From an uncultured Thermoleophilia bacterium (GTDB taxonomy: Bacteria; Actinomycetota; Thermoleophilia; UBA2241), in contig CAVQSP010000010.1 of NCBI GenBank assembly GCA_963715985.1, positions 128,001 to 192,000 of the forward strand: a stretch of DNA of 64,000 nt. The letters are read 5' to 3'. The first letter of the stretch is position 1. The number at the start of each line of letters is the position of its first letter. This document shows positions 1-56,493 of the stretch, piece by piece. The position numbers were made by a program, and so were the translations under genes. Below the pieces are notes generated by a model. The model worked only from the letters and a program-made list of their open reading frames with translations. It made no database searches and was not told where the DNA came from.

Positions 1-483
1 CTAGATGAACAGGTTGACGTTGGCCTCGTCGGCGTGACCGAGGTACGCGGCCACGCCTTCGAACTCGACGTCGTCGATCAGCTCCTCCTCCTTGAAACCG
101 AGGATGTCCATGCTGAGCGTGCAGGCGACGAACTTGACGCCCTGCTCGCGAGCGCTGTCGAACAGTTCCTCGAGCGACATGCCGCCGGCGTCCTTGGTGG
201 CTCTACGCATCATGGGGCTGCCGGCGCCGGCGAAGTTCATCTTGGAGAGGCCGAGCTTCTTGGTGCCCTTGGGCATCATCTTGCCGAACATCGACTGCAG
301 AGTGGTCTTCTTGGCGGCGCTCTCGACCTTCTCCGTCTTGCGCAGGATGTTGAGCCCCCAGAAGGTGCAGAAGATGGTGACGTCGTCGCCCATCGCCGCG
401 GCGCCGTTGGCGATGATCAGGGCGGCCATGACCTTGTCGAAGTCACCGCTGAACAGGATGATCGTCTTCTTGGTGGTGTCCAT
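1..483 (-). CDS. DsrE/DsrF/DrsH-like (DsrE2-type) sulfurtransferase
   Basis: IILFSGDFDKVMAALIIANGAAAMG...FCTFWGL and conserved ACTLSMD Cys motif; start overlaps the upstream stop (TGATG). Confidence 0.9.
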   Translation of the reverse strand: MDTTKKTIILFSGDFDKVMAALIIANGAAAMGDDVTIFCTFWGLNILRKTEKVESAAKKTTLQSMFGKMMPKGTKKLGLSKMNFAGAGSPMMRRATKDAGGMSLEELFDSAREQGVKFVACTLSMDILGFKEEELIDDVEFEGVAAYLGHADEANVNLFI

Positions 484-758
484 CAGGACCCCTCTCTCGG
501 GACAGCTTGATAGGGGAAGTAACCGTCGTCGTCGACCTCTTTGATCTCGGCGATCCAGCCGTACTTGCGCAGGCCCATCACCCAGAAGGTGACTTCACGC
601 GTGGGCTTGCCGACGGCCGCGGCGATCTGCGGGATGGTCTGGGGCCCGTCTTCGAGTGCCTTGAGGATGACGGGCCTCATCGCATGTTCGTCGCGGATGA
701 CCTCGCGCACGGGGCGCAGGGCCGGCGTGGGTGTGGTCTCGGGTGCGGTCGTGCTCAC
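483..758 (-). CDS. Small winged-HTH protein (91 aa) within the Hdr-like cluster
   Basis: ILKALEDGPQTIPQIAAAVG...LRKYGWI HTH pattern; GTG at 758 overlaps the HdrA stop (GTGA). Confidence 0.75.
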   Translation of the reverse strand: MSTTAPETTPTPALRPVREVIRDEHAMRPVILKALEDGPQTIPQIAAAVGKPTREVTFWVMGLRKYGWIAEIKEVDDDGYFPYQAVPREGS

Positions 759-2491
759 TGGCACACCACCTCCAGCATGCCGTCGATCATGCTTCGGATC
801 TGGGCGTCGGTGTAGCCCTGCAGGTCGATGGCGTCGGACGGGCACACCGGGACGCAGCCGCCGCAGCCCTTGCACGCGGTCTTGGAGATCGTCGCGATCT
901 CCTTGCCGTCGAGCGGGACCCTGGCGATGGCGTCGTACGGGCACGTGGTCTCGCAGGCGCCGCACCAGGTGCACGCGTCGGTGTCCACCGTGGCGACCAG
1001 CGGGTCGAGTTCCGCGAACCCCCGCTTGAGGATGGCGGCGCTCTGCGTGACCGCCGCCAGGCCCGAAGCGACACTCTCGGAGGAGGTGCGCGGCGCCTGG
1101 CAGCAGCCACAGATGTAGGCGCCGTCCACCACGGTCTCCACGGGGCGCAGCTTGGGGTGGATCTCGTTGTAGAAGCCGCTCTGACCGATAGGGAGCTTGA
1201 GGGCCTTGGTGAGGCCCTCGTTCTCGCGCGGCACCATGCCGGTGACGAGCACGACCAGGTCGGCGGTGAGCGCGACCTCCTCGCCTTCGCTCAGGAGGTC
1301 GCGGGCGGTCACGGTGACGCCGCCGCCCGGCGCCTTCTCGACGGCCGGCGGCTCGTCGTCGGGGAACTTGATGAAGGCGGAGCCCTTCTCCAGCGCCTCG
1401 GCGTACAGGAGTTCGTACTTACCGTAGGTGCGGATGTCGCGGTAGAAGTGGTACTGGTGCACCTTGCCGGGCAGGTCGGCGACCATGGTCGCCGTGTGCA
1501 CGGCGGCGGTGCAGCAGTAGCGCGAGCAGTAGGTGTTGCCACCCTCGACGTCCTCTCCCTGACGGGAGCCGACGCAGTAGATGTAGGCGACGGTCTTGAC
1601 CGGGCGGCCGTTGTACTGCAGCGGGCCGCCCTCCTCCACCATCTTCTTGAACTCGGCGATGGTGACCACGCCGTCCAGGCCGTAGCCGAGCTCGCCGTCG
1701 GCGGGCTGGTACGTGTCGGCGCCGGTGGCGATGACGATGGAGCCCACGTCCACGGTGATGGTCTCGAGCTGCTCGCCGTGCTGCACGGCCAGCGTGACCT
1801 CGTAGTTGCCGAAGCTGCCCGCCTTGGCGACCAGCTCGGCCTGCGTGAACACGGTGATGGCGGGGTGGCTGCGCACGGCCTGCTCGAGCTTCGCGATCAG
1901 CTCGAGGCCGTTACGACCGTGCGGGAACATGGTCTTGAACTCGCCCACCCGGCCACCGAGCTTGGCCTCCTTCTCGATGAGGAAGACGGAGAGGCCGACC
2001 TCGGCCAGGCCGAGGGCGGCGCGCAGGCCGGTGATGCCGCCGCCCACCACGAGGCTCTTGGGTGTGGTCTCGACGACGATCGGCTCGAGCGGGTCGGTAA
2101 GGCGCGTGCGGTTGATGCCCGCGCGCACCAGGCGCAGGGCCTTCTCGGTGGCGCCGGCGTGGTCGTCGGTGTGCGTCCACGAGCACTGCTCGCGCACGTT
2201 CACCTGTGTGTACTGGAACGGGTTCATGCCCGCGCGCTTGGCGACGTCGCGGAACGTGAAGGTGTGCAGCTTGGGCGAGCAGGAGGCGATGACGAGCCCG
2301 TCCAGGCCCTGCTCCTGCGCGTCGGCGATGATCTCGCTCTGCGTGGCGTCCGAGCACGTGAACATGGCCGTCTTGGCCACGCTCACGCCCTCCTCCTTCT
2401 CGACGGCGGCGACGACCTCGTCCACATCCACGTGGTCGCCGATGTTGCCGCCGCACTGGCAGACGTAGACGCCGATCTTCCTGGCGCTCAT
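755..2491 (-). CDS. hdrA: HdrA/QmoB-like heterodisulfide reductase flavoprotein with N-terminal Fe-S domain and C-terminal ferredoxin
   Basis: IGVYVCQCGGNI, ASCSPKLH, NVREQCSW, GGGITG FAD motif, CVGSR, YCSRYCC, two CxxCxxCxxxCP motifs. Confidence 0.88.
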   Translation of the reverse strand: MSARKIGVYVCQCGGNIGDHVDVDEVVAAVEKEEGVSVAKTAMFTCSDATQSEIIADAQEQGLDGLVIASCSPKLHTFTFRDVAKRAGMNPFQYTQVNVREQCSWTHTDDHAGATEKALRLVRAGINRTRLTDPLEPIVVETTPKSLVVGGGITGLRAALGLAEVGLSVFLIEKEAKLGGRVGEFKTMFPHGRNGLELIAKLEQAVRSHPAITVFTQAELVAKAGSFGNYEVTLAVQHGEQLETITVDVGSIVIATGADTYQPADGELGYGLDGVVTIAEFKKMVEEGGPLQYNGRPVKTVAYIYCVGSRQGEDVEGGNTYCSRYCCTAAVHTATMVADLPGKVHQYHFYRDIRTYGKYELLYAEALEKGSAFIKFPDDEPPAVEKAPGGGVTVTARDLLSEGEEVALTADLVVLVTGMVPRENEGLTKALKLPIGQSGFYNEIHPKLRPVETVVDGAYICGCCQAPRTSSESVASGLAAVTQSAAILKRGFAELDPLVATVDTDACTWCGACETTCPYDAIARVPLDGKEIATISKTACKGCGGCVPVCPSDAIDLQGYTDAQIRSMIDGMLEVVCQ

Positions 2492-5274
2492 GAGGCCACC
2501 TCCACCATCGCCGGCTCAGAGACCGCGGGGGCTTCCTTGGCTTTGGCCTTCTCGATGTGCGCGGCGGCCTGGGCTACCGCGGCCCCCGCGTGCAGGATGG
2601 AGTCGGGGATGTCCTTCACGCCCGAGGCCGAGCCGGCCACGAACACGCCGGGCAGGTTGGTGCGCCCGGGGTCCAGGTCCTCGTCGGCCTCGCCGACGTA
2701 CATGTACTCGTCGAGGGCAAGCTGACCCTCGTCGAACAGGTGGGCGGCCTCCATGTTGGGGCGCACGCCCACGGCCAGCACGACCATGTCGTACTCGGCC
2801 TCCACGATGCCGCCGTCTCCCTCGATGTCTTCGTAGCGGACGATGAGGTTACCGTTCTCCTTCTCCGTGATCTTCGCCACACGGCCCTTGACGAACATGG
2901 CGCCCATGTCCTTGGCCTGCTGGTAGAACTCGTCATAGCCCTTGCCCACGGCGCGCACGTCCATGTAGTGGACGGTCACGTCGGCCAGCGGCAGGGCGCC
3001 CATCACGAGCTGGTTGTGCTTGACGGAGTACATGCAGCAGATGCGCGAGCACAGCGGGTTGTCCACCTGCGCGTCGCGCGAGCCCGTGCACATGATGTAG
3101 GCGATGCTGTCCGGCACCTTGCCGTCGCCGGGGCGCACCACGCCGTTGAACGGGCGCGTCGGGGCGAGCAGGCGGTCCATCTGCATGCCGGTGATGACGT
3201 TGGCGAACTTGCCGTAGCCGTACTCCGGCTTGGCGTCGGCCGGGAAGAGCGTGAAGCCGGTGGCCAGGACGACGGCGTCCACGTCCACCTCGAGGTCCTC
3301 GCCGCGCATGCTGAAGTCGATGCAGTCGGCCGGACAGGCGTCCACGCAGGCGTGGCACTCGGAGCACACGCCGCAGTCCAGGCAGCGGGCCGAGCCGAGG
3401 AAGGCTTCGTCCTCGGTCATGGGGCCCTCGGTCTCGCCGAAGTCCGTGGGGGAGGCGCTCATCTGGGCGTGGGACTCCAGGGGCTCGCGGCGGTCGTACA
3501 CGTCCTGCCGCCCGAGCACCTTCTTCTTGTCCGCGACCGGGAGCGCCTCGTCGAAGGCGTCCGCGTCCAGGGCCTCGCCCTGGAGGTAGCGGTCGATCAT
3601 GAAGGCGGCGCGGCGGCCTTGGCCGACGGCCGTGGTGATCATCGTAGGGCCGGTGACCACGTCTCCGGCGGCGAAGATGTGCGGCACCGACGTCTGCAGC
3701 GTGTCGGGATCGGCCTTGAGCGTGCGGTTGCCGTTGGTCTCGAGGCCGAACTTCTCGGTGTCGGCGCCCATGCCGGCGGCGACGATGACCACGTCGCACT
3801 CCACCGTCTGCTGCTTGCTCTCGTCGTACTCGGGGGCGAACTTGCCCTCGGGATCGAAGACGCAGGAGCAGACCTTGAGCACGGCGCTCTCGACCCTGCC
3901 GTTGCCGGTGAAATGGTTGACGCCCCAGCCGTCGTGCAGCGTGATGCCCTCGGCCTTGGCCTCCTCGACCTCGAAGTCGTGGGCCGGCATGTCCTCGCAG
4001 CACTCCAGGCTGGCCTGGTGGACGGCTGCGGCGCCGAGGCGGCGCGCCGAGCGCGCCGCGTCGATGGCCACGTTGCCGCCGCCGACCACGAGCACCTTCT
4101 TGCCGGTGAGGTCGACGTTGCGGCCGAGCTTGACGTCGGCGAGGAAGGTGAGGGCGCTCATGACGCCGTCCTTGTCCTCGCCGGGCACGTTCAGCTTCAC
4201 AGCCCGGTGCGTGCCCGTCGCCATGAGGACGGCGTCGAAGCCGCCCGCGGCGAGCTCCGCCGGGTCCTCGACCCTGACGCCGGTCTCGATCTCGACGCCG
4301 ATGGCCGTGACGTTGGAGATGTCGTCGTCGATCACGTCGTTCGGAAGGCGGTAGGCGGGGATGCCGAGGCGGAGCATGCCGCCCGCGGCGGGCGCCGCCT
4401 CGAGGATCTTGACGCCGTAGCCCTTGCGCGCGAGCTGCCAGGCGGCCGTGAGGCCGGCCGGGCCCGAGCCCACCACGGCGACCTTCTTGCCGTTCTGCTC
4501 GGGCTTCTCATGGCCTTGCGGCTCCGCCTGGCCGTACCGCTTGTCGGCGATGAAGCGCTTGAGGCGGCGGATGGGCAGCGGCCCCTCGAGCTCGCCGCGC
4601 GTGCACTCGCCCTCGCAGGGCGCGTAGCAGGCGCGCCCGAGCGAGCCCACGAGCGGCGTCGTCTCGAGCACGAGGTCGAAGGCCTGGTCGTACTCGCCGC
4701 TGCGCACGCGGGCCACGTAGCCGTGCGCCTTGATGCCGGCGGGGCACTCGTAGGTGCAGGGCGACACGCCCTCACGCGTGATCACGGCCTTCTTGGGGAC
4801 CGCCTGCGGAAAGGCGATGAAGGCGGCGCGCCGCGACACCATGTCGGCGTTGAACTCGTCGGGCACGGCCACGTTGCATGCCATCTCGCACTGGCGGCAG
4901 CCGGTGCACGCGGCCTCGTCGATGAACTTGGGGTTCTGGCGCACGGTGGCGTGGTAGCCGCCGTTGCCGTCGGTGCGGATGCCCTCCACCTGGGCGTAGG
5001 TGAGGACGTCGATGTTGGGGTGGTGGATGGTGGCGCCCATCTTGGGGGTGGAGATGCAGCTGGCGCAGTCGAGCGTGGGGAAGACCTTGCTGAGCAGGAT
5101 CATCTTGCCGCCCACGCTGGGCGCCTTCTCGACGACGAGCACCTTGTAGCCCATGTCGCCGAGCTTGAGGGCCGACTCCATCCCGCCGATGCCGCTGCCC
5201 ACCACGAGAGCGTCGTACTTGAGCGGTGCACCTTCGGCGCCCCGCTCGATGGCCCCGCTGCGTTCGCCATTCAT
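2488..5274 (-). CDS. HdrA-like flavoprotein with inserted ferredoxin and GltD-like NAD(P)H oxidoreductase module (HdrL-type), 928 aa
   Basis: GSGIGG, FPTLDCASC, CTGCRQC, PCTYECP, GRACYAPCEGEC, GSGPAG, GGGNVAID, CLDCGVCSECHAC, CTGSR, CSRICC; ATGA overlaps at both ends. Confidence 0.88.
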   Translation of the reverse strand: MNGERSGAIERGAEGAPLKYDALVVGSGIGGMESALKLGDMGYKVLVVEKAPSVGGKMILLSKVFPTLDCASCISTPKMGATIHHPNIDVLTYAQVEGIRTDGNGGYHATVRQNPKFIDEAACTGCRQCEMACNVAVPDEFNADMVSRRAAFIAFPQAVPKKAVITREGVSPCTYECPAGIKAHGYVARVRSGEYDQAFDLVLETTPLVGSLGRACYAPCEGECTRGELEGPLPIRRLKRFIADKRYGQAEPQGHEKPEQNGKKVAVVGSGPAGLTAAWQLARKGYGVKILEAAPAAGGMLRLGIPAYRLPNDVIDDDISNVTAIGVEIETGVRVEDPAELAAGGFDAVLMATGTHRAVKLNVPGEDKDGVMSALTFLADVKLGRNVDLTGKKVLVVGGGNVAIDAARSARRLGAAAVHQASLECCEDMPAHDFEVEEAKAEGITLHDGWGVNHFTGNGRVESAVLKVCSCVFDPEGKFAPEYDESKQQTVECDVVIVAAGMGADTEKFGLETNGNRTLKADPDTLQTSVPHIFAAGDVVTGPTMITTAVGQGRRAAFMIDRYLQGEALDADAFDEALPVADKKKVLGRQDVYDRREPLESHAQMSASPTDFGETEGPMTEDEAFLGSARCLDCGVCSECHACVDACPADCIDFSMRGEDLEVDVDAVVLATGFTLFPADAKPEYGYGKFANVITGMQMDRLLAPTRPFNGVVRPGDGKVPDSIAYIMCTGSRDAQVDNPLCSRICCMYSVKHNQLVMGALPLADVTVHYMDVRAVGKGYDEFYQQAKDMGAMFVKGRVAKITEKENGNLIVRYEDIEGDGGIVEAEYDMVVLAVGVRPNMEAAHLFDEGQLALDEYMYVGEADEDLDPGRTNLPGVFVAGSASGVKDIPDSILHAGAAVAQAAAHIEKAKAKEAPAVSEPAMVEVAS

Positions 5275-5708
5275 GCGTCGGCCTTTCGCGACGGACCCAG
5301 GCCCGAGAGGGCCGCGGCGTACTCGTGCATGTAGTTGGTGAAGGGCTCCGCGCACACGGAGCAGACCGCGGCCATGCGCACGCGCTGCGGCTCGTAGCCC
5401 TTCTCGACGAGAAGGTCCTGCGCGGTCTGCATGATGCCGGAGGTGCGCTCCGCGCAGTCCGGCAGGTACGCGCACTCCTCGCCGTCGGCGGCGATGAAGA
5501 CACCGTCGAAGCCCTGCTCCATCGCGTACAGGATCCAGCTGGGCTTCACCGCGCTGGTGCAGGGCAGGTTGATGACCATGACCTTGGGCGAGTAGTGCAT
5601 GTGCGAGCTGCCCGCCAGGTCGATGCCCGGGTCGGAGATGTTGTTGGTGCTGAAGACCAGGATGCGCGGGTCGTAGGCCTGGCCCTCAGATGCCTCGGCC
5701 GCAGCCAT
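5271..5708 (-). CDS. MvhD/FlpD-family iron-sulfur subunit with variant Cys pattern
   Basis: PRILVF...GIDLAG...HY...LPCTS.V...GFDGVFI...ECAY...PQRVRM scaffold; lies directly upstream of the HdrA genes. Confidence 0.82.
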   Translation of the reverse strand: MAAAEASEGQAYDPRILVFSTNNISDPGIDLAGSSHMHYSPKVMVINLPCTSAVKPSWILYAMEQGFDGVFIAADGEECAYLPDCAERTSGIMQTAQDLLVEKGYEPQRVRMAAVCSVCAEPFTNYMHEYAAALSGLGPSRKADA

Positions 5709-5710
5709 CG

Positions 5711-5962
5711 TCACTTCATCTTCCTCACGAAGAGGCGCATGTAGCCCGGCTCCTCGACCACGCCGAGGTACTCGTGACCCATCTTCTTGGACCACGCCGG
5801 GAGGTCCTTGGTGGTGCCGCTGTCGGTGGCCTGGACCTCCATGACGCCGCCGACGGAGACGCTGGGGATGCCCTTCTTGGCGGCGAGGATCGGACCGGGG
5901 CACGAGGTTCCGCGCGCGTCCACGATCTTCTCTACCTGGATGGTGCTGAGATCTTCCGACAT
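5711..5962 (-). CDS. tusA: TusA-family sulfur carrier protein
   Basis: VDARGTSCPGP (CPxP) motif, ATDSGT..DLPAW; AAGGAG RBS upstream. Confidence 0.9.
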   Translation of the reverse strand: MSEDLSTIQVEKIVDARGTSCPGPILAAKKGIPSVSVGGVMEVQATDSGTTKDLPAWSKKMGHEYLGVVEEPGYMRLFVRKMK

Positions 5963-6102
5963 CGTTCTCTCCTTTGTGTCGCCGGCCCCTCGGCGCGGCT
6001 CTTGGACGCTTGTGCTTGTGCTTTCTTTCGCAAACGACGGGCGCAGGAGGCCCTCGTCTGGTGGTGCCTGTGGTCTGCGGTGGCCTTGCTTCCGGGAGGC
6101 GC

Positions 6103-6549
6103 TTATGCGCTCGCGGCCGGTGCGGCCGGTGCGGCCTGAACGGGTGCGACGGCCGGTCTCGCCGACGCCTCGGCGCCGGCGTCGGCCTCCAGAAGCTCGG
6201 CGGCGTGCAGTGACTCGCCCTGAGCCAGGTGCTGCTCCACCAGCGCCTGACGGATCAGGGCGCACGCCTGGATGAACTTCTGGTTGGTGACGCGGTAGTA
6301 CACGGTCTGGGCTTCCTTGCGGGAGGTGACCAGGCCGCGCTCCTTCAGCACGCGCAGGTGCTGCGACACGTTGTGCACCGAGATGCCGATCTCGGCGGCG
6401 AGGTCGCCGACGCACTTCTCGCCGTCGCCGATGGCGTGCAGGATGGCCTGGCGATGATCGTTGGCCAGCGCCTTACACAACTCGGCGTGCATGTGGTAGA
6501 CGGCCTTCAGATCTGGTGACTGGGTGCTGTCTGTGTCCATGGTCTCCAC
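6103..6549 (-). CDS. ArsR/SmtB-family transcriptional regulator
   Basis: CKALANDHRQAIL...EKCVGDLA...VSQHLRVLKERGLV...VYY. Confidence 0.9.
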   Translation of the reverse strand: METMDTDSTQSPDLKAVYHMHAELCKALANDHRQAILHAIGDGEKCVGDLAAEIGISVHNVSQHLRVLKERGLVTSRKEAQTVYYRVTNQKFIQACALIRQALVEQHLAQGESLHAAELLEADAGAEASARPAVAPVQAAPAAPAASA

Positions 6550-6572
6550 GAGTTCATGTATTTGCGTACTTG

Positions 6573-6601
6573 CTTATATACGCTACCGGGAAACGGGTCA
6601 A
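6573..6601 (-). promoter_or_regulatory. Putative sigma70-type promoter of the arsR-hdr cluster
   Basis: Minus strand TTGACC (6601-6596), 17 nt, TATAAG (6578-6573), in an AT-rich patch. Confidence 0.5.
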
Positions 6602-14114: not shown

Positions 14115-14373
14115 ATGAGCGACCCCACGACTTCAGCGGACGATCGGCCGTCCGGCGAGACCGTCACGGACGAGACCGATCAGGAGGCGGCGCCCGACGA
14201 TCCCTCGACGGGGACCGCGTACCTGGGCATGGGCGTCACGATCGGCATCGGCACAGGGATCGGCATCGCTCTCGGCGCGGCGCTGGGCAACGTGGCGCTT
14301 GGGGTCGGCACTTGGCGCCGGGTTGGGGACCGTCGTCGGCGCCATCCTGGAGTCCGGCCGCAAGCGTCACTGA
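14115..14373 (+). CDS. Small Gly-rich membrane protein, frameshift near the 3' end
   Basis: AGGAGG RBS; YLGMGVTIGIGTGIGIALGAALGNVALGVG. Confidence 0.5.
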
Positions 14374-14471
14374 CGGCGAGCACTCTCCCGCTCCTTGACA
14401 GATCGTCTCGTCACGCCCATGATATACCAAGAAACCAGAATCGTTTACAGGTATTACAGGGGAGCATCCGC

Positions 14472-15089
14472 ATGCCGGCGACCAAGGACGAGATCGCGCA
14501 GACCTTCATGGGCCTGGCCGTTCGCTACGGCTTTCGCCGCACGGCGGTGGAGGACGTCGCCAAGGCGCTGCGCATCTCCAAGAAGACCATCTATGAGTAC
14601 TTCCCCAGCAAGGACGCCATGCTCGAGTACGCCCTTGAGCTGGCTGCGATCGAGCAACGCCGGCGCGTCGAGTCGCTGCTCACCGAGACCACGGCGCTCG
14701 GCCGCTCTCTCGAGGTCACGCGCATCGCGCTCGCGGACGCGCGAGCGGGATTCGAGCAGAACCCGCATGTGGAGCTGGCCGAGCCGGCCGAGCTCCAGAC
14801 TCGCGTCAACGACCGTGTGTACGGCCCCATGATCGTCGACCTCCTCGAGCAGGGTGTAGCAGCGGGGGAGTTCGAGGTCGCCGACCTCGACCTGACGAGC
14901 CGGTTCGTGCAGGCGATCGGCATGGAGGCGGTGCGGCAGATCCACGACGATCTCGCGAGTCATCCCGAGGAGGCGACCGTCCAGGCGATACGACGGCTGA
15001 TCACCGGCGGGAGCGGGGCGCCGGAGTCCGGGCCTTCGACCGCGCCGATGCCCGCCACCAAGAAGAGCAAGAAGACAAAGAAGAGATGA
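14472..15089 (+). CDS. TetR/AcrR-family regulator
   Basis: YGFRRTAVEDVAKALRISKKTIYEYFPSKD; GGGAG RBS; TTGACA at 14395. Confidence 0.9.
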   Translation: MPATKDEIAQTFMGLAVRYGFRRTAVEDVAKALRISKKTIYEYFPSKDAMLEYALELAAIEQRRRVESLLTETTALGRSLEVTRIALADARAGFEQNPHVELAEPAELQTRVNDRVYGPMIVDLLEQGVAAGEFEVADLDLTSRFVQAIGMEAVRQIHDDLASHPEEATVQAIRRLITGGSGAPESGPSTAPMPATKKSKKTKKR

Positions 15090-15102
15090 TGAGGTGAGGA
15101 CG

Positions 15103-15636
15103 ATGACGCAGGTGCTGGTCGCATACGGGACACGGTACGGATCTACGTGCGAGGTCGCTGAGGCGGTGGCCGCAACGCTCGAGGAACAGGGCATCGACTC
15201 GGACGTGAAGAATGCGAGGGAGGTGCACTCGCTGGACGGCTACGACGCCGTCGTGCTCGGCACGCCGCTCTACATGGGCGCGCTGCACAAAGACGTCCGC
15301 GCCCTGCTCGAGAAGAACCGGGAGGCGCTCGAGCGCACGCCGTTCGCGCTCTTCGCGCTCGGGCCGATCAAGGCTGACGACGGCGTCGACGGCTCGCGCG
15401 CGCAGCTCATCGAGGCGCTGGCCAAGCTGCCGGTGCCGACTCCGGCCTCCACGGCCGTCTTCGTCGGCGCCTACGACCCGGCGCGGCTCGGGTTCAAGGA
15501 CAAGATGATCACCGCACTGCCGGCTTCGCCGTTGCACGGCGAGACGGCTCATGATGAGCGGGACTGGGATGCGATCCGTGCGTGGGCGCGAGGGCTGCCC
15601 GCCGGGCTCGAAGCGCTGGTCCCGACGCCCTGGTGA
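15103..15636 (+). CDS. Flavodoxin-domain protein (HemG-like)
   Basis: VLVAYGTRYGST.EVAE...YDAVVLG.PLYMG...DERDWDAIRAWA. Confidence 0.85.
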   Translation: MTQVLVAYGTRYGSTCEVAEAVAATLEEQGIDSDVKNAREVHSLDGYDAVVLGTPLYMGALHKDVRALLEKNREALERTPFALFALGPIKADDGVDGSRAQLIEALAKLPVPTPASTAVFVGAYDPARLGFKDKMITALPASPLHGETAHDERDWDAIRAWARGLPAGLEALVPTPW

Positions 15637-15859
15637 GCCCGATCTCCTGAGCTGGATGGTCGGCGAGCGTGAGCACGCTGCCGGGCACCGGCCGAACGTC
15701 ACCCTGGGCGGGTGCGACGGCGGCAGGTACTGTCCGATGACGGCAATCAGTCTCCTGCGCGCCCGCGGCGACGACCACCGAAGGCTCCCATCCGTTCCGC
15801 ATCAATTGTGGCACACTCCAATCAGGATACCGGCTGGATCTGAAGCGGAGCACCGACCC

Positions 15860-16188
15860 TCAAGGTCGTCTTCTACCGCTCTGATGCCGGCAACGAGCCA
15901 GTGCGTGAGTGGCTTCTGGGTCTGAGTCGGGCGGACCGCAAGACGATCGGCCAGGACGTCAAGACGGCGCAGCACGGATGGCCGCTGGGGATGCCGCTCA
16001 TCCGCAAGGTGGCGCCTCGATTGTGGGAAGTGCGGTCGCACATTGCCGACGGCGTGGCAAGGGTGGTATTCACCGTCGACGGGAGTGCGATGGTCTTGCT
16101 CCGCGGCTTCGTCAAGAAGTCCCGGAAGATGCCCGCGGCGGAGCTCAGGACGTCCCAGCAGCGCCTGGCCAGGCTTGATGAGGAGTGA
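15860..16188 (+). CDS. RelE/ParE (Gp49/HigB-like) toxin; start uncertain
   Basis: KVVFYRSDAGNEPVREWL...IGQDVKTAQHGWPLGMPLIRK...LWEVRS...GFVKKSRKMP. Confidence 0.8.
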
Positions 16189-52023: not shown

Positions 52024-55000
52024 CTACTTGGCCGCGGCCCCGCGGTGCCTTGCCGTGATCTGCTCGGCCTCGCCGGGGGCGAGCTTCTCCATCTTGACGG
52101 CGCAGACCTTGAACTCCGCCGTCTTGGTCACGGGGTCGCCGGCCGAGTTGGTGAGCTCGTTGACCGGCGACTCCTTGTAGTGGAACGTCATGAACGTGAC
52201 GCCCGGAGCCACGCGGTCGGTGACCTGGATCCGCGTCGTGATGGAGCCGCGGCGCGAGCTCACGCGGATGAGCTCGCCGTCCTCGAAGCCGTACCGCGCC
52301 GCGTCCTCGGGGTTGACCATGGCCAGCTCCCACGGGCGCAGCATCTCGAGGCTCGCCGAGATGCGCGTGGAGATGTTGTACTGGTAGAGCATGCGGCCCG
52401 TGGTGAGCAACGTGGGGTACTCGTCGTCCACGATCTCCGCCGGGGGCTGGAAGGGGATGCCCTGCAGCAAGCCCTTGCCGCGCGTGAACTTGCCCTGGTG
52501 AAGGAACTGCGTGCCGGGGTGGTCCGGAGTCGGGCACGGCCACTGGACGCCGCCCTCGTTCTCGATGCGCTCCCACGTGATGCCGCCGAAGGTCGGGACG
52601 AGTCTGCTGACCTCCTGGAAGACCTCCTCGGGGGAGTTGAAAGGCATCGGGTAGCCGAGCCGCGCGGCCAGGTCGAGGATGATCTCCCAGTCCGGACGGC
52701 ACTCTCCCGGCGGGTCCACGGCCTTACGCACGCGCTGCACGCGGCGCTCGGTGTTGGTGAAGGTGCCGTCCTTCTCGGCGTACAGCGCGGCCGGGAGGAA
52801 GACGTCGGCGTGCGTGGCCGTCTCCGTCATGAAGATGTTCTGCACGACGAGGAGGTCCAGGCTCTGCAGTGCCCTGCGCACATGGTTGGCGTCGGCGTCG
52901 GTGAGGGCCGGGTCCTCGCCCATCACGAACATGGCCTTGAGCTTGCCCTCCACGGCGGCGTCGAGCATCTCGGGGATGCGCAGGCCGACCTTGTCCGGCA
53001 TCGGCACGCCGTAGGCCTCCGAGAACTTGGCCTTGGCGGCCTCGTCGAGCACGCTCGGGTAGCCGGGGAAGGAGTTGGGCAGGGCGCCCATGTCGCAGGA
53101 GCCCTGCACGTTGTTCTGGCCGCGCATGGGGTTGACGCCGGCGTTTGGCTTGCCGATGTGGCCGGTGACCATGCCGAGGTTGGCCAGGTTCATCACGTTG
53201 GCCGTGCCCACCGTGTGCTCGGTGATGCCCAGCGTGTAGAAGATGCCGGCCTTCTCGGTCTTGGCGTACAGCTCGGCGGCCGCGACGATCTGCTCGGCGG
53301 GGATGCCGGTGATCTCGGAGGCCCGCTCGGCCGGGTAGTCCTTGACCGTGTCCCACAGGTCGTCCCAGCCCTCACAGCGTTCGTCGATGTACGCCTGGTC
53401 GTGCCAGCCGTTGGTGATGATGGTGTGCAGCACGCCGTTGACGAACGCGTTGTCCGTACCCGGCCTGATCTGCAGCCACATGTAGGCGTGGTCCGCAAGC
53501 TCGGTACGCCGTGGGTCGATGACGATGAGCTTGGCGCCGCGGGCCGCGGCCTGCTTCATCTTGTTGCCGATGATCGGGTGCGCCTCGGTGGCGTTGGACC
53601 CGATGATGAAGAGCACGTCGTCACCGACGATCTCCCCGATGGAGTTCGTCATTGCGCCTGAACCGAGCGTGGCGGCCAGACCGGCCACCGTTGGAGCGTG
53701 TCAGGTACGTGCGCAGTGGTCTATGGAGTTCGTGTTGAGACCCGCCCTCGTGAGTCTCTGCAGGAGGTAGTTCTCCTCGTTGGTGCAGCGGGCCGAGCTG
53801 AGCACGCCGATGGCGTCCGGCCCGTCCTCCTCCTTGATGCGCAGGAGCCGCTCGGCCACGTAGTCGAGGGCCTCGTCCCAGGTGGCCTGCTCCCAGATGC
53901 CGCCGCGCTTGATGAGCGGGTGCGTGATGCGCTCCGGGCTGTCGATGAGGTCGGTGTGGAAGCGGCCCTTGACGCACAGCGAGCCCTGGTTGACCGGGGC
54001 GTCGTAGGCGGCGGTGACGCCGACCACCTTGCCGTCGACCACGTTGAGGTCGAAGTTGCAGCCCACGCCGCAGAACGGGCAAGTGGTGCGCACCTTGCTG
54101 CGCTCGAAGGCGCGCGTGCGCGTGAGCTGGCGGTTCGTGAGCGCACCCGTGGGGCACATGTCCACGCACTGCCCGCAGAAGCGGCAGAACGAGGTGTCGA
54201 GCTGGTGGTCGAACGGCCCGGCGATCTTGGCGTTGAAGCCGCGCTGGGTGAAGTTGATGGCCTCGGTGACCTGCACCTCGCGGCACACGCCCACGCACTT
54301 GCCGCAGAGGATGCAGCGCTTGGGGTCGTAGGCGATGAGCGGCTGCTCCTCGTAGGCGTCGTAGTCGCGGGCCTCGGCGCCCTGGAAGCGGTTGTCGAAG
54401 ACCTCGTACTCGATGCCGAGGCATTGCAGCTCGCAGTCGCCGTGCGCCTCGCACGTGCACTGCAGGCACAGCTGGGCGCCGCGTACTGCCTCGTCCTCGG
54501 GGAAGCCGAGCTCGATCTGCTCGAAGGTGGTCTTGCGGTCCTCGGGCCAGAGCTTGGGCATGTGCGCCGGGGCGCTGATCTCGGAGATGCCGGCGTTGAT
54601 GTCGATGAACACGGGCGGCACCTCGGCCATGCGGCGGATGCGCGGGTCGATGCCGCCCTTGGCGTCGAGCGCCTCGAGGAACGGCGTGCGGCGCAGGTCG
54701 TGGAGCTGCTGCGAGATGGCCTTCATGTCGTCGCCGCGCAGGTAGGCGTCCATGCTCCAGGCCGCCTTCTTGCCCTGGGCGACGGCCTGGATCACGGTCT
54801 GGGCGCCGAGCACGGCGTCACCGCCGGCGAAGACCTGCGGGTCGCCGGTCTGCAGCGTCCAGTCGTCTACCTGGATGGTGCGCCAGCGCGTGTGGGCGAT
54901 GCCCTGCTCCTCGCCGGCGCCGTCCAGCAGCGGGAACTGGCCGGTGGCGCTGATGATCTGGTCGCATTCCACGACGAACTCGGAGTCCTCGAGGGGCACA

Positions 55001-56286
55001 GGGCGCCGGCGGCCGGAGGCGTCCGGCTCACCGAGCTCCATGCGGATCAACTCGATGCCGTGCACGTTGCCGGCGTCGTCGGTGAGCACGCGCACCGGCG
55101 CCACCTGCAGGACCATGCGCACGCCCTCCTCCTCGGCCTCGTCGACCTCGGTGTGGTGGGCGGGCATCTCCTTGCGCGAGCGCCGGTAGAGGCACGTGAC
55201 CTCGTCGGCGCCCAGGCGCACGGCGGTGCGGCAGGCGTCCATGGCGGTGAAGCCGCCGCCGATGACGCTGACCTTCTTGCCGACCGCGACAACGCCGTGG
55301 CGCTCGTAGTCGCCGAGGAAGTCGACGGCCGTCACGCTGCCGGGGGCCTCCTCGCCGGGGATGTTCATGGTGTTGGAGTTGAAGGCGCCCAGGGCGAGGA
55401 AGACGACGTCGTACTCGGCCTTGAGGTCCTCGAGCTGGAAGTCGGTGCCCAGGCGCACGCCCGTCTGGATCTCCACGCCCATGCGCCAGAGGATGTTGAT
55501 CTCGGCCTCCAGGATGTCGCGCGGCAGGCGGTACGACGGGATGCCGTAGCGGAGCATGCCGCCCGGCTTGGGCTGCGCCTCGAAGATCTTGACGGCGTGG
55601 CCCTCGAGGCGGGCGTAGAAGGCGGCGGCGAGGCCGGCGGGCCCGCCGCCCACGATGGCGATCTTCTTGCCGGAGTCCGGCTTGGGCTCGGCCGGCAGCA
55701 GCAGCTCGCCGGTCTGCTCGGCCGGGCGCGTCTGGTCGGCCATGAAGCGGTGCAGCTGGCAGATGGTGATGGGCTCCTCCACCAGCTGGCGGCGGCACGG
55801 GCCCTCACAGGGCCGCGGGCAGACGCGTCCGAGGATGCCGGGGAAGGGCAGGTCCTGACGCAGCACGCGCATGCCGCCCTCGTAATCCCGCTCGGCGATG
55901 CGGCCGAGGAAGTCGGGGATCTTGATGTGCGTGGGGCAGGCGTCGCGGCAGGGCGGCGTGCAGTACGACGTGTGGTCGCTGAAGATGAGCTCCAGGTTGA
56001 GCTGGCGGATGGCGCGCAGCTCCGCCGTCTGCGTGGTGATGACCATGCCGTCCACGGCCGGCGTGTCGCAGGCGGTGACCGGGTCCTTGCGGCCCTCCAC
56101 CTCGACGATGCACAGGCGGCACGCCGAAGCGACGTGCAGCGTGTCGTGGTAGCAGAGGGTGGGGATGGTGACGCCGGCCACCCGGGCGGCCTCGAGGATG
56201 CTGGAGCCCTCGGGGACGATGACGGGGTGGCCGTCGACGGTGAGCGCGATCACGTCGGTCGCGCGTGAGGCTGCGGACTCGGTCAC
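52024..56286 (-). CDS. fdhF: Selenocysteine formate dehydrogenase alpha fused to [2Fe-2S], GltD-like and ferredoxin domains, 1420 aa, Sec862
   Basis: In-frame TGA at 53703-53701 in DHCART-U-HAPTV; CPFCGVGC, LCVKG, RGQNNVQG; the two ORF-track halves are in frame; GGAG RBS before GTG at 56286. Confidence 0.9.
53671..53703 (-). promoter_or_regulatory. Bacterial SECIS element
   Basis: UGA CACGCUCCAAC GGUGGCC-GGUCU-GGCCGCC: hairpin 11 nt after the UGA, resembling the E. coli fdhF SECIS. Confidence 0.85.
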
Positions 56287-56493
56287 AGCAACTCCATTCG
56301 CTCGCTCGGCACTGGCACCTCGGTCGCACACGCGGCGGCCGGCGCTCCCACGGGAGGCCGTCGCTCGGCCGGATGCCGGCCGGCGAAGGCCGCCTCCACA
56401 GACGGACACTTCCCGAGCGGTCCAGGCGCCCGAGAAGCAGATACAGTGTACAACGCGCGAGGCTGGGGTTGAAGCGCGGCGCTCGAGCGCTGT

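Follow-up and report, generated by a model that had tools for sequence, protein, structure and literature searches.

How the Qmo complex links the quinone pool to a sulfur enzyme of the cytoplasm by electron transfer is a long-standing question. As described by Ramos et al. (2012, PMC3333476), QmoC is a fusion of HdrC and HdrE with two quinol-reducible hemes b, and QmoB consists of HdrA and an MvhD-like domain; menaquinol alone was judged insufficient for Qmo, and a low-potential co-donor (ferredoxin, a hydrogenase, a formate dehydrogenase (Fdh) or an NADH dehydrogenase) was postulated. In the account of Neukirchen et al. (2023, PMC10504309), 'type II' Qmo proteins are closer to HdrA and occur in organisms without Dsr or Apr, where they were left without an assigned function. 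The TusA and DsrE families have become known mainly through sulfur oxidisers, where they are described beside HdrA-like genes (Tanabe et al. 2024, PMC11094781). Here we describe an operon in which a Qmo-like core, an NAD(P)H module and these sulfur carriers occur together. It begins in a window of 64,000 nucleotides (nt), the whole stretch of DNA that was analyzed (G000:C10:128001-192000), from the genome of an uncultured Thermoleophilia bacterium. The seven genes found in the window, arsR, tusA, mvhD, hdrL, hdrA, a small winged-helix open reading frame (ORF) and dsrE2, make up seven-eighths of an operon, its upstream part, which encodes a membrane-bound complex of Qmo type. We consider it about an even call that this complex couples NAD(P)H and the menaquinone pool to sulfane sulfur bound to carrier proteins.

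Gene organization and the QmoC-like subunit

The seven genes occupy bases 1-6549 of the window, all on the minus strand and all intact (Table 1). The tusA stop codon is followed after 2 nt by the ATG of mvhD, the mvhD/hdrL and hdrL/hdrA junctions are ATGA overlaps, the hdrA/small ORF junction is a GTGA overlap, and the small ORF and dsrE2 overlap by 1 nt; bases 1-3 of the window are the dsrE2 stop codon. Each gene aligned to relatives (for example L012, L014 and L025) as one full-length tblastn piece. A first-pass annotation of the window had listed seven intact, co-oriented genes with overlapping codons from mvhD to dsrE2, none of them frameshifted, and both statements agree with the coordinates and with the single-piece alignments. 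It had also warned that further genes might be missed, and the operon does continue past position 1.

In the 18 kb before position 1, a gene for a protein of 379 amino acids (aa), P0001, starts 11 nt past the dsrE2 stop codon and is preceded by GGAG. The protein has two CxxCxxCxxxC motifs, forming an HdrC-type 2x[4Fe-4S] domain, followed by six hydrophobic transmembrane helices. This is the domain fusion of QmoC, and residues 11-355 align to positions 7-360 of the 360 positions of the NCBIfam qmoC profile (NF038018, E 1e-54). The HdrC-like part matches solved HdrC (E 1.8e-11), which is the only match of the protein among solved structures. Among relatives, His residues in the membrane helices as well as Cys residues are invariant, and the membrane domain presumably binds heme b. 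Many relatives with 60 to 94% identity are called QmoC by the Joint Genome Institute, and several of their source records are Thermoleophilia in NCBI. The earlier remark that no hdrB or hdrC was visible is true within the window, but an HdrC/HdrE-fusion gene lies just beyond its edge. Similarly, of the partners for which a look past position 1 had been proposed (hdrB, hdrC, hdrD or a rhodanese gene), an HdrC-type fusion was found, but neither a CCG/HdrB domain nor a rhodanese is present in the operon. The QmoC-like gene therefore argues against a soluble NADH-to-persulfide reductase and makes the quinone pool a third partner. The frame proposed at first, that of a heterodisulfide reductase with CoM-S-S-CoB, the heterodisulfide of coenzymes M and B, replaced by another substrate, did not hold; Qmo is the right frame.

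Table 1. Features of the operon and of the region upstream of arsR, with positions in the window.
Feature	Position	Strand	Description
promoter-like region, arsR upstream	6559..6601	-	TTGACC at 6596-6601 and 22-bp motif TATATAAGCAAGTACGCAAATA at 6559-6580, overlapping the -10 box; putative operator
arsR	6103..6549	-	ArsR/SmtB-family repressor, 148 aa; Pfam HTH_5 E 4.6e-13
tusA	5711..5962	-	sulfur carrier, 83 aa, Cys-Pro-Gly-Pro motif; Pfam TusA E 2.7e-18
mvhD	5271..5708	-	MvhD/FlpD-type, 145 aa; Pfam FlpD E 2e-28, profile positions 1-123 of 123
hdrL	2488..5274	-	928 aa; Pfam Pyr_redox_2 E 7.7e-49 and Fer4_20 E 2.6e-14, inside the HdrA frame
hdrA	755..2491	-	578 aa; N-terminal 4-Cys domain, FAD domain, C-terminal 2x[4Fe-4S] ferredoxin domain
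small winged-helix ORF	483..758	-	91 aa, GTG start overlapping hdrA stop
dsrE2	1..483	-	soluble DsrE2B-like sulfur carrier, 160 aa, active-site Cys121; Pfam DrsE_2 E 2.6e-60, full length

The flavoprotein core

HdrL contains the thioredoxin-reductase-like FAD domain of HdrA in two parts (residues ~17-170 and ~632-919), of which residues 633-919 match methanogen HdrA (5odc_A, E 2.5e-98). Between them (residues ~170-640), a GltD/NfnB-like module of ~470 residues, with sites for 2x[4Fe-4S], FAD and NAD(P)H, replaces the inserted ferredoxin domain. Residues 170-570 match 9n5u NfnA, 4ylf_B (E 3e-60) and 5jca_L (E 2e-50) in the PDB, and the NCBIfam model PRK12771 for an NAD(P)-binding protein is matched at E 8e-137. 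The protein thus has the arrangement by which HdrL is recognized, a GltD/NfnB-like FAD/NAD(P)H and di-cluster region inserted into an HdrA FAD domain, and the GltD-type fusion noted in the first-pass annotation is real. HdrL is without the N-terminal and C-terminal Fe-S domains.

HdrA aligns to 5odc_A (E 1.2e-112) with residues 4-234 on chain residues 4-234 and residues 236-573 on chain residues 308-650, so that nothing in it corresponds to chain residues 235-307, which form the inserted ferredoxin domain in the methanogen protein. The 'FPTNDCSIC' stretch, which HdrL retains as FPTLDCASC, is without its Cys pair in HdrA. Other Cys of HdrA are invariant, and both the FAD domain and the Fe-S clusters expected of HdrA are found in it. 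Since HdrL and HdrA are complementary, we infer a heterodimer like that of QmoA and QmoB. On this comparison of domains, HdrL is predicted to sit in the place of QmoA, and HdrA and MvhD to represent a split QmoB; MvhD, for which its family predicts a [2Fe-2S] cluster, would be the counterpart of the MvhD-like domain of QmoB, encoded here by a separate gene.

Conservation in other genomes

In a collection with a single genome for each species, a profile of 15 QmoC-like proteins found 492 relatives, of which the best 80 loci were retained and classed by tblastn with ten local proteins. Twenty-nine of these 80, all with the small ORF, formed a carrier class, in which QmoC is present throughout by construction because all loci were fetched through it; the remaining 51 formed a sister class. 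Within the carrier class, tusA was found in 23 loci (the other six are cut upstream), with arsR directly upstream in 17 of these, and dsrE2 in 26; of the other three, L031 is cut just after QmoC. The order small ORF-dsrE2-qmoC occurred in 19 loci and small ORF-qmoC-dsrE2 in 7, and the QmoC gene was directly beside the small ORF or dsrE2 in 29/29. The mixed gene set noted in the first-pass annotation is therefore a real unit, whose order is kept across many genomes. The hosts were mostly Thermoleophilia and other Actinomycetota, together with a member of Gemmatimonadales (L035), two genomes without a phylum label (L055 and L085) and a 2.9-kb contig labelled Deltaproteobacteria (L018).

HdrL was long in 23 carrier-class loci, short in three (L076, L081 and L086) and not covered in three. 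Gaiellales-type and sister-class relatives align only to HdrL residues 19-175 and 632-900 and are therefore without the NAD(P)H insert. In L076, L081 and L086, tusA, mvhD, the small ORF and QmoC are kept, and no other donor module was recognized in their operons. NAD(P)H is therefore not a universal donor, and these loci, with no donor module besides the carriers, suggest that sulfur on the carriers is one of the redox partners.

The sister class has the order QmoA-like gene, qmoC, hdrA and mvhD, and is without NAD(P)H insert, TusA, DsrE2, winged-helix protein or ArsR. It shares the HdrA/MvhD/QmoC core with our locus (QmoC is 55 to 62% identical), but its donor is a [NiFe] hydrogenase: MvhA was found in 38, MvhG in 40 and the HycI protease in 36 of the 51 loci, compared with none of the 29 carrier-class loci for each of the three. 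In L030 and L036, both from Thermoanaerobaculia, a molybdopterin oxidoreductase (~14149-16160) takes the place of the Mvh hydrogenase, which suggests a formate-linked version. In an IQ-TREE phylogeny of 81 QmoC rows, computed without L043, whose match was split, the carrier class fell into three clades of 19, 6 and 4 rows within an unresolved actinobacterial polytomy, and a single origin could not be shown.

In the literature searched we found no description of the gene set QmoC/TusA/DsrE2/HdrL/MvhD/HdrA, although a review of HdrA modules (Appel et al. 2021) may cover it, and likewise none of the hydrogenase-HdrA-QmoC unit.

Some carrier-class loci have further sulfur genes nearby, namely TauE in L015 and Pyr_redox_2 flavoprotein oxidoreductases in L011, L015, L031 and L039. 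DsrC was considered as a universal partner and rejected, as no more than 3 of the 29 loci (L031, L035 and L039) have DsrC-like genes upstream and tblastn at E 1e-8 found none in genome G000. In L035, the upstream region (22-3351) encodes a cysteine desulfurase, a DsrC with both C-terminal Cys and an HdrD/DsrK-like Fer4_8+CCG protein; in L039 (934-3716), and with the same layout in L031, it encodes a Pyr_redox_2 protein, DUF1641, a one-Cys DsrC-like protein and a second DrsE_2 protein. In several long-contig metagenome bins (L011, L013, L016, L019, L022, L043, L077 and others), hdrL, hdrA or qmoC was recovered in at least two tblastn pieces, as is typical of indel errors; the window copies are whole.

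Sulfur carriers and the winged-helix protein

TusA has the fold and the Cys-Pro-x-Pro motif of its family, and its active-site Cys is invariant in 24/24 aligned rows. In DsrE2, Cys121 is invariant in 27/27 aligned rows and Cys39 varies; the protein scored 86.5 bits with the NCBIfam DsrE2 equivalog (cut-off 210), and its nearest solved chains were 3pnx (E 1.5e-46) and the DsrE2B-type 2qs7 (E 2.2e-22). After P0001 follow a gene for a 136-aa DsrE-like protein and a second tusA, and then a methyltransferase gene and another arsR on mixed strands. The DsrE-like gene (L009:16330-16737, minus strand, equal to G000:C10:126330-126737) reads 'VQSRRVRHGPKE' where L011, L016 and L043 read 'H.H.CGTAG', an active-site Cys motif. 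It has the same 136-aa length as its relatives, and another frame, read by eye, gives 'VDVCGTA'; it looks like a compensated double frameshift, which may be an assembly error or a sign of a decaying gene.

The product of the small ORF had no Pfam match at E <= 0.01. It contains no Cys and an invariant R-K-Y-G motif, and its AlphaFold2 (AF2) model, with a predicted local distance difference test (pLDDT) score of 87.9, consists of three helices and a wing. SmtB was the top Foldseek match (E 5e-4), VIA-align gave Z 10.9 to PH1932, 10.7 to Z-alpha and ~10-11 to many winged-helix families including ArsR-type proteins, and family members matched HTH_20, TrmB and ArsR models weakly. The label of a winged helix-turn-helix protein given in the first-pass annotation is thus upheld by the AF2 fold and by VIA-align. 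The 'recognition' helix is unusually hydrophobic (FWVMGLRKYGW). The small ORF directly follows hdrA in all 25 loci with both genes; the other 4 of 29 are cut in or before hdrA. Ten longer winged-helix relatives were scanned against Pfam, and six of them, as well as the 136-aa proteins P0127 and P0234, were inspected. In P0252 and P0127 the winged-helix protein is fused in frame to an HdrA C-terminal ferredoxin domain, and in P0189 it is joined in frame to a TusA-like domain without its Cys; P0234 had no recognizable partner domain. Three further candidate fusions (P0157, P0219 and P0171), and probably P0164, were rejected because they look like read-through of frameshifts or sequencing errors. 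Because the protein has no Cys, a hydrophobic helix, a fixed place after hdrA and in-frame fusions to partner domains, it is probably an adaptor subunit rather than a free regulator. A small winged-helix accessory acting on a sulfur redox enzyme rather than on DNA is known in DsrD. The DsrD family was not among 25 of the 26 Pfam families found for members of the small-protein alignment, and the fold is that of a generic winged helix. With the small-ORF profile, 8 of 401 sampled Actinomycetota genomes, including G000, matched at E <= 1e-8, and 179 clusters matched at E <= 1e-10 among 1.84 billion representative proteins.

Comparison with related systems

The locus resembles QmoABC of sulfate reducers and of some sulfur oxidisers (type I), as described by Ramos et al. 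(2012, PMC3333476), in having two HdrA-like flavoproteins, an MvhD-like module and a QmoC with an HdrC-like di-cluster part and a membrane b-type domain. It differs in that MvhD is separate and placed first, the QmoA-like subunit contains the 470-aa NAD(P)H module, TusA, DsrE2 and the winged-helix protein are part of the operon, and no aprBA/sat partner was found in the genome. In this genome (4.35 Mb in 22 contigs, 88.8% complete with 7.3% contamination), the best match to AprA scored 38.1 bits against a cut-off of 641.75, so that the link to AprBA seen in Qmo was not found, and DsrA had no match. One further genome of this genus, the only one in the 401-genome sample, is 1.8 Mb in size and has no match to the small ORF; the bin G000 may be composite, and statements on what the organism lacks call for caution. 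By the description that Neukirchen et al. (2023, PMC10504309) give, the locus fits type II Qmo, the type being assigned by that description only.

With MvhAGD-HdrABC of methanogens (5ODC), the complex would share the HdrA fold and clusters, MvhD and the principle of one donor module feeding a flavin for two acceptors. In contrast to the methanogen complex, HdrB with CCG clusters and a heterodisulfide are both missing, and HdrC forms one protein with a membrane domain. HdrA is without the inserted ferredoxin domain, HdrL has a GltD module in its place, and a heterodimer is expected instead of a homodimer. All 16 CCG (HdrB-type) matches in the genome were on other contigs or in other Hdr loci, with none near the operon on C10, so that the HdrB of HdrABC is missing from the operon. 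The HdrL insert matches the large subunits of NfnB/GltD type found in NfnAB and in the Pyrococcus 'sulfide dehydrogenase', but NfnAB is a free heterodimer, whereas here the module is inserted into an HdrA frame. Early accounts of the Pyrococcus enzyme presented it as a polysulfide reductase dependent on NADPH.

sHdr systems also use ArsR-type regulators. They require HdrB1/B2, HdrC1/C2 and lipoate-binding LbpA, while our operon has no gene with a CCG domain (no search for LbpA was made), and sHdrA is a short protein of 349 aa (6tjr, E 4.7e-27). In sHdr loci as described by Tanabe et al. (2024, PMC11094781), TusA and DsrE-family carriers adjoin HdrA-like genes, as they do here.

Two other Hdr loci of the genome are of note. 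On contig C9 (C9:23657-31817, L095:3660-11817, minus strand), a QmoA-like gene (631 aa) is followed by genes for QmoC (59% identical), HdrA, MvhD, MvhG, MvhA and HycI, an arrangement with hydrogenase that recurs in 38 to 40 of the 51 sister-class loci, from many phyla. On contig C11 (C11:301619-309846, L094:5619-13846), HdrL and HdrA form a single ORF of 1523 aa, followed by MvhD, MetV (DUF5981), MetF (methylenetetrahydrofolate reductase, MTHFR) and an HdrB-like CCG protein, and then by a flavodoxin, a corrinoid protein and an MtmB-like methyltransferase. Its HdrL-HdrA-MvhD module is 36 to 37% identical to that in the window. We take this paralogue to correspond to the methylene-tetrahydrofolate reductase MetVF-HdrABC-MvhD of acetogens, and from its gene content the C11 locus is predicted to be an acetogen-type enzyme of this kind with a built-in NAD(P)H module. 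It shares the HdrL-HdrA-MvhD module with our operon; its partners are MTHFR and HdrB as opposed to QmoC and sulfur carriers.

Proposed electron flow and alternative readings

In the mechanism that we favor, HdrL and HdrA would form a pseudo-symmetric heterodimer replacing the (HdrA)2 dimer of methanogens, and electrons would pass between NAD(P)H, the HdrA-type flavins and, via QmoC, menaquinone. The third redox partner, which is adenosine 5'-phosphosulfate (APS) reductase in sulfate reducers, would be sulfane sulfur carried as persulfide on TusA or DsrE2, and the winged-helix protein may dock the carriers or HdrA to the complex. With regard to direction, which we hold weakly, NAD(P)H, with or without menaquinol, would reduce carrier-bound sulfur to sulfide by flavin-based confurcation or bifurcation. 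The low-potential co-donor would thus be hard-wired, and the scheme would otherwise be the one proposed for Qmo by Ramos et al. (2012, PMC3333476). As donor modules interchange around a shared core among the relatives, the accessory genes appear to name the substrates: a hydrogenase, an Fdh-like enzyme or NAD(P)H as donor, and MetVF, the quinone pool or carrier-bound sulfur as acceptor. Transfer of electrons from NADH to a persulfide on TusA or DsrE2, which the first-pass annotation had proposed, keeps the NAD(P)H module and the conserved carrier Cys in its favor, but the system is not a soluble one lacking HdrB and HdrC, the insert is missing in three relatives, and no site for S-S chemistry could be identified.

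Several observations weigh against this mechanism. No domain that makes or breaks S-S bonds (CCG/HdrB, rhodanese or redox-active disulfide) was found in the operon, and no S-S catalytic site could be identified; we infer the persulfide-reduction step from gene neighborhood alone. NADH alone could reduce a persulfide, and a quinone link is therefore not thermodynamically required. P0001 scored 186.4 bits with the qmoC profile, below its equivalog cut-off of 300. dsrE2 was not seen in the Gaiellales-type loci L076 and L081, in which 2.6 and 1.4 kb remain after QmoC. The absence of apr and dsr is not proven at the completeness and contamination of the genome. In its favor are RNA-library contigs with at least 92% identity, from 4 runs of 3 studies (freshwater, ice and sediment), that cover 20 to 30 of 30 operon bins; they are compatible with transcription in close relatives and also with carried-over DNA. 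Summed depth was low in the arsR bins, but contig depth does not allow genes to be ranked.

A more far-reaching suggestion, tentative and in our judgment somewhat unlikely as it stands, is a cytoplasmic, quinone-coupled sulfur respiration without Dsr, Apr or a periplasmic polysulfide reductase, in which TusA and DsrE2 hand sulfane sulfur or thiosulfonate to the Qmo-type complex via winged-helix docking, with confurcation or bifurcation between NAD(P)H and menaquinone. If true, nature would here offer its first example of a Qmo whose co-donor, postulated for so long, is built into the complex itself. The near-identical occurrence of the stretch in 18 wetland metagenome runs, which hold 45 to 68% of its sampled words, hints at an overlooked route of zero-valent sulfur turnover in wetlands. 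The co-donor of Qmo can be read here from the genes: in the carrier class it is an NAD(P)H module, and in the sister class it is a hydrogenase or, at two loci, an Fdh-like enzyme. The co-donor postulate can thus be tested directly on a known group of five to eight proteins, and the range of TusA/DsrE carriers now includes, in Thermoleophilia, a redox system that belongs to neither the Dsr nor the sHdr pathway. These neighborhoods also offer concrete partners for the type II Qmo proteins that were left without assigned function in the account of Neukirchen et al. (2023, PMC10504309).

An alternative without sulfur chemistry is a bifurcating NAD(P)H:menaquinone/ferredoxin oxidoreductase comparable to FixABCX/EtfABCX, in which an HdrA-type flavin would split the electrons of NAD(P)H between menaquinone, via QmoC, and a low-potential acceptor such as ferredoxin, with TusA, DsrE2 and ArsR being co-regulated for handling of sulfide and persulfide or for sulfur supply to clusters and cofactors. 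The sister class indeed runs the HdrA-QmoC core with a hydrogenase or Fdh-like donor and without sulfur carriers, the operon encodes no S-S catalytic domain, and the genome has many HdrA-type modules of the sort that bifurcating anaerobes typically have. However, dsrE2 and the small ORF lie between hdrA and qmoC with overlapping codons, the carriers are present in 23 to 26 of 29 loci that span several deep QmoC clades, and the winged helix, fused in some proteins to HdrA or a TusA-like domain, makes a physical link between carriers and complex. Besides, this alternative would leave the relatives without NAD(P)H insert donorless in their operons. We regard it as unlikely.

The complex could also work in the oxidative direction, with sulfide or sulfane sulfur on DsrE2 or TusA as the donor and the flavins sending electrons both downhill to menaquinone and uphill to NAD(P)+. 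The cell would then obtain quinol as well as NAD(P)H without reverse electron transport, and the complex would be a cytoplasmic analogue of sulfide:quinone reductase. Such a split is feasible by the standard potentials (about -270 mV for S0/HS-, -75 mV for menaquinone and -320 mV for NAD), and Pyr_redox_2 genes lie just upstream in the four loci mentioned above. The direction would also suit carriers best known from sulfur oxidisers (PMC11094781) and a Qmo that, in the sources cited, is thought to run toward the quinone pool in such organisms (PMC3333476; PMC10504309). On the other hand, the genome, in which Hdr modules are linked to hydrogenase and to MetVF, looks like a strict anaerobe's, and no sulfite-forming or sulfite-handling enzyme is encoded in the operon, so that we consider an oxidative role quite improbable. 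A soluble HdrL-HdrA-MvhD complex that has no partner in the membrane and reduces persulfide on TusA/DsrE2 with electrons from NAD(P)H would fit the presence of an NAD(P)H module, of carriers and of an ArsR with Cys, but the QmoC-like gene that follows dsrE2 so closely, and its position beside the small ORF or dsrE2 in every carrier-class locus, make it very hard to credit.

Probable regulation by ArsR

ArsR scored 85.7 bits with the NCBIfam HTH_metalloreg model (cut-off 55) and 49.7 bits with the BigR model, under its cut-off of 155. Its nearest solved structures are HlyU, BigR and SqrR. Cys25 and Cys96 are invariant in 18/18 aligned rows and Cys46 is variable, so that the early description of a Cys-containing ArsR stands, but the positions differ from those in BigR and HlyU: in the alignment with HlyU, the alpha-2 Cys position is taken by His38, and the Cys pair at alpha-2 and alpha-5 that characterizes BigR, SqrR and HlyU was not found. 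Upstream of arsR, the 22-bp motif (Table 1) is kept in 14/14 aligned regions (the window and 13 loci), with flanks that have otherwise diverged, and it occurs once in the 4.35-Mb genome, even when 4 mismatches are allowed. Judging from this pattern, ArsR probably represses the operon at this unique motif over the -10 box and is released on thiol modification.

Other features of the window

The G+C content is ~70%. The first-pass annotation had described much of the window as frameshifted, for which spot checks at two places (16.2-17.3 kb and 53701-53703) gave no confirmation; the remark was followed by spot checks only, as a crude frame plot based on G+C at third codon positions confuses operon junctions with frameshifts. 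The suspected gap at 16.2-17.3 kb is an intact ORF of 245 aa. Positions 52024-56409 (minus strand) encode a formate-dehydrogenase-like molybdopterin enzyme fused to a 2Fe-2S domain and an NAD(P)H module of GltD type, which appears as two separate ORFs (902 and 554 aa). What looks like a break at 53701-53703 turned out to be a TGA codon, in frame, within 'HCARTUHAPTVAGL'. As this is a selenocysteine-type motif, some apparent breaks in the window are not frameshifts, and the organism probably uses selenocysteine.

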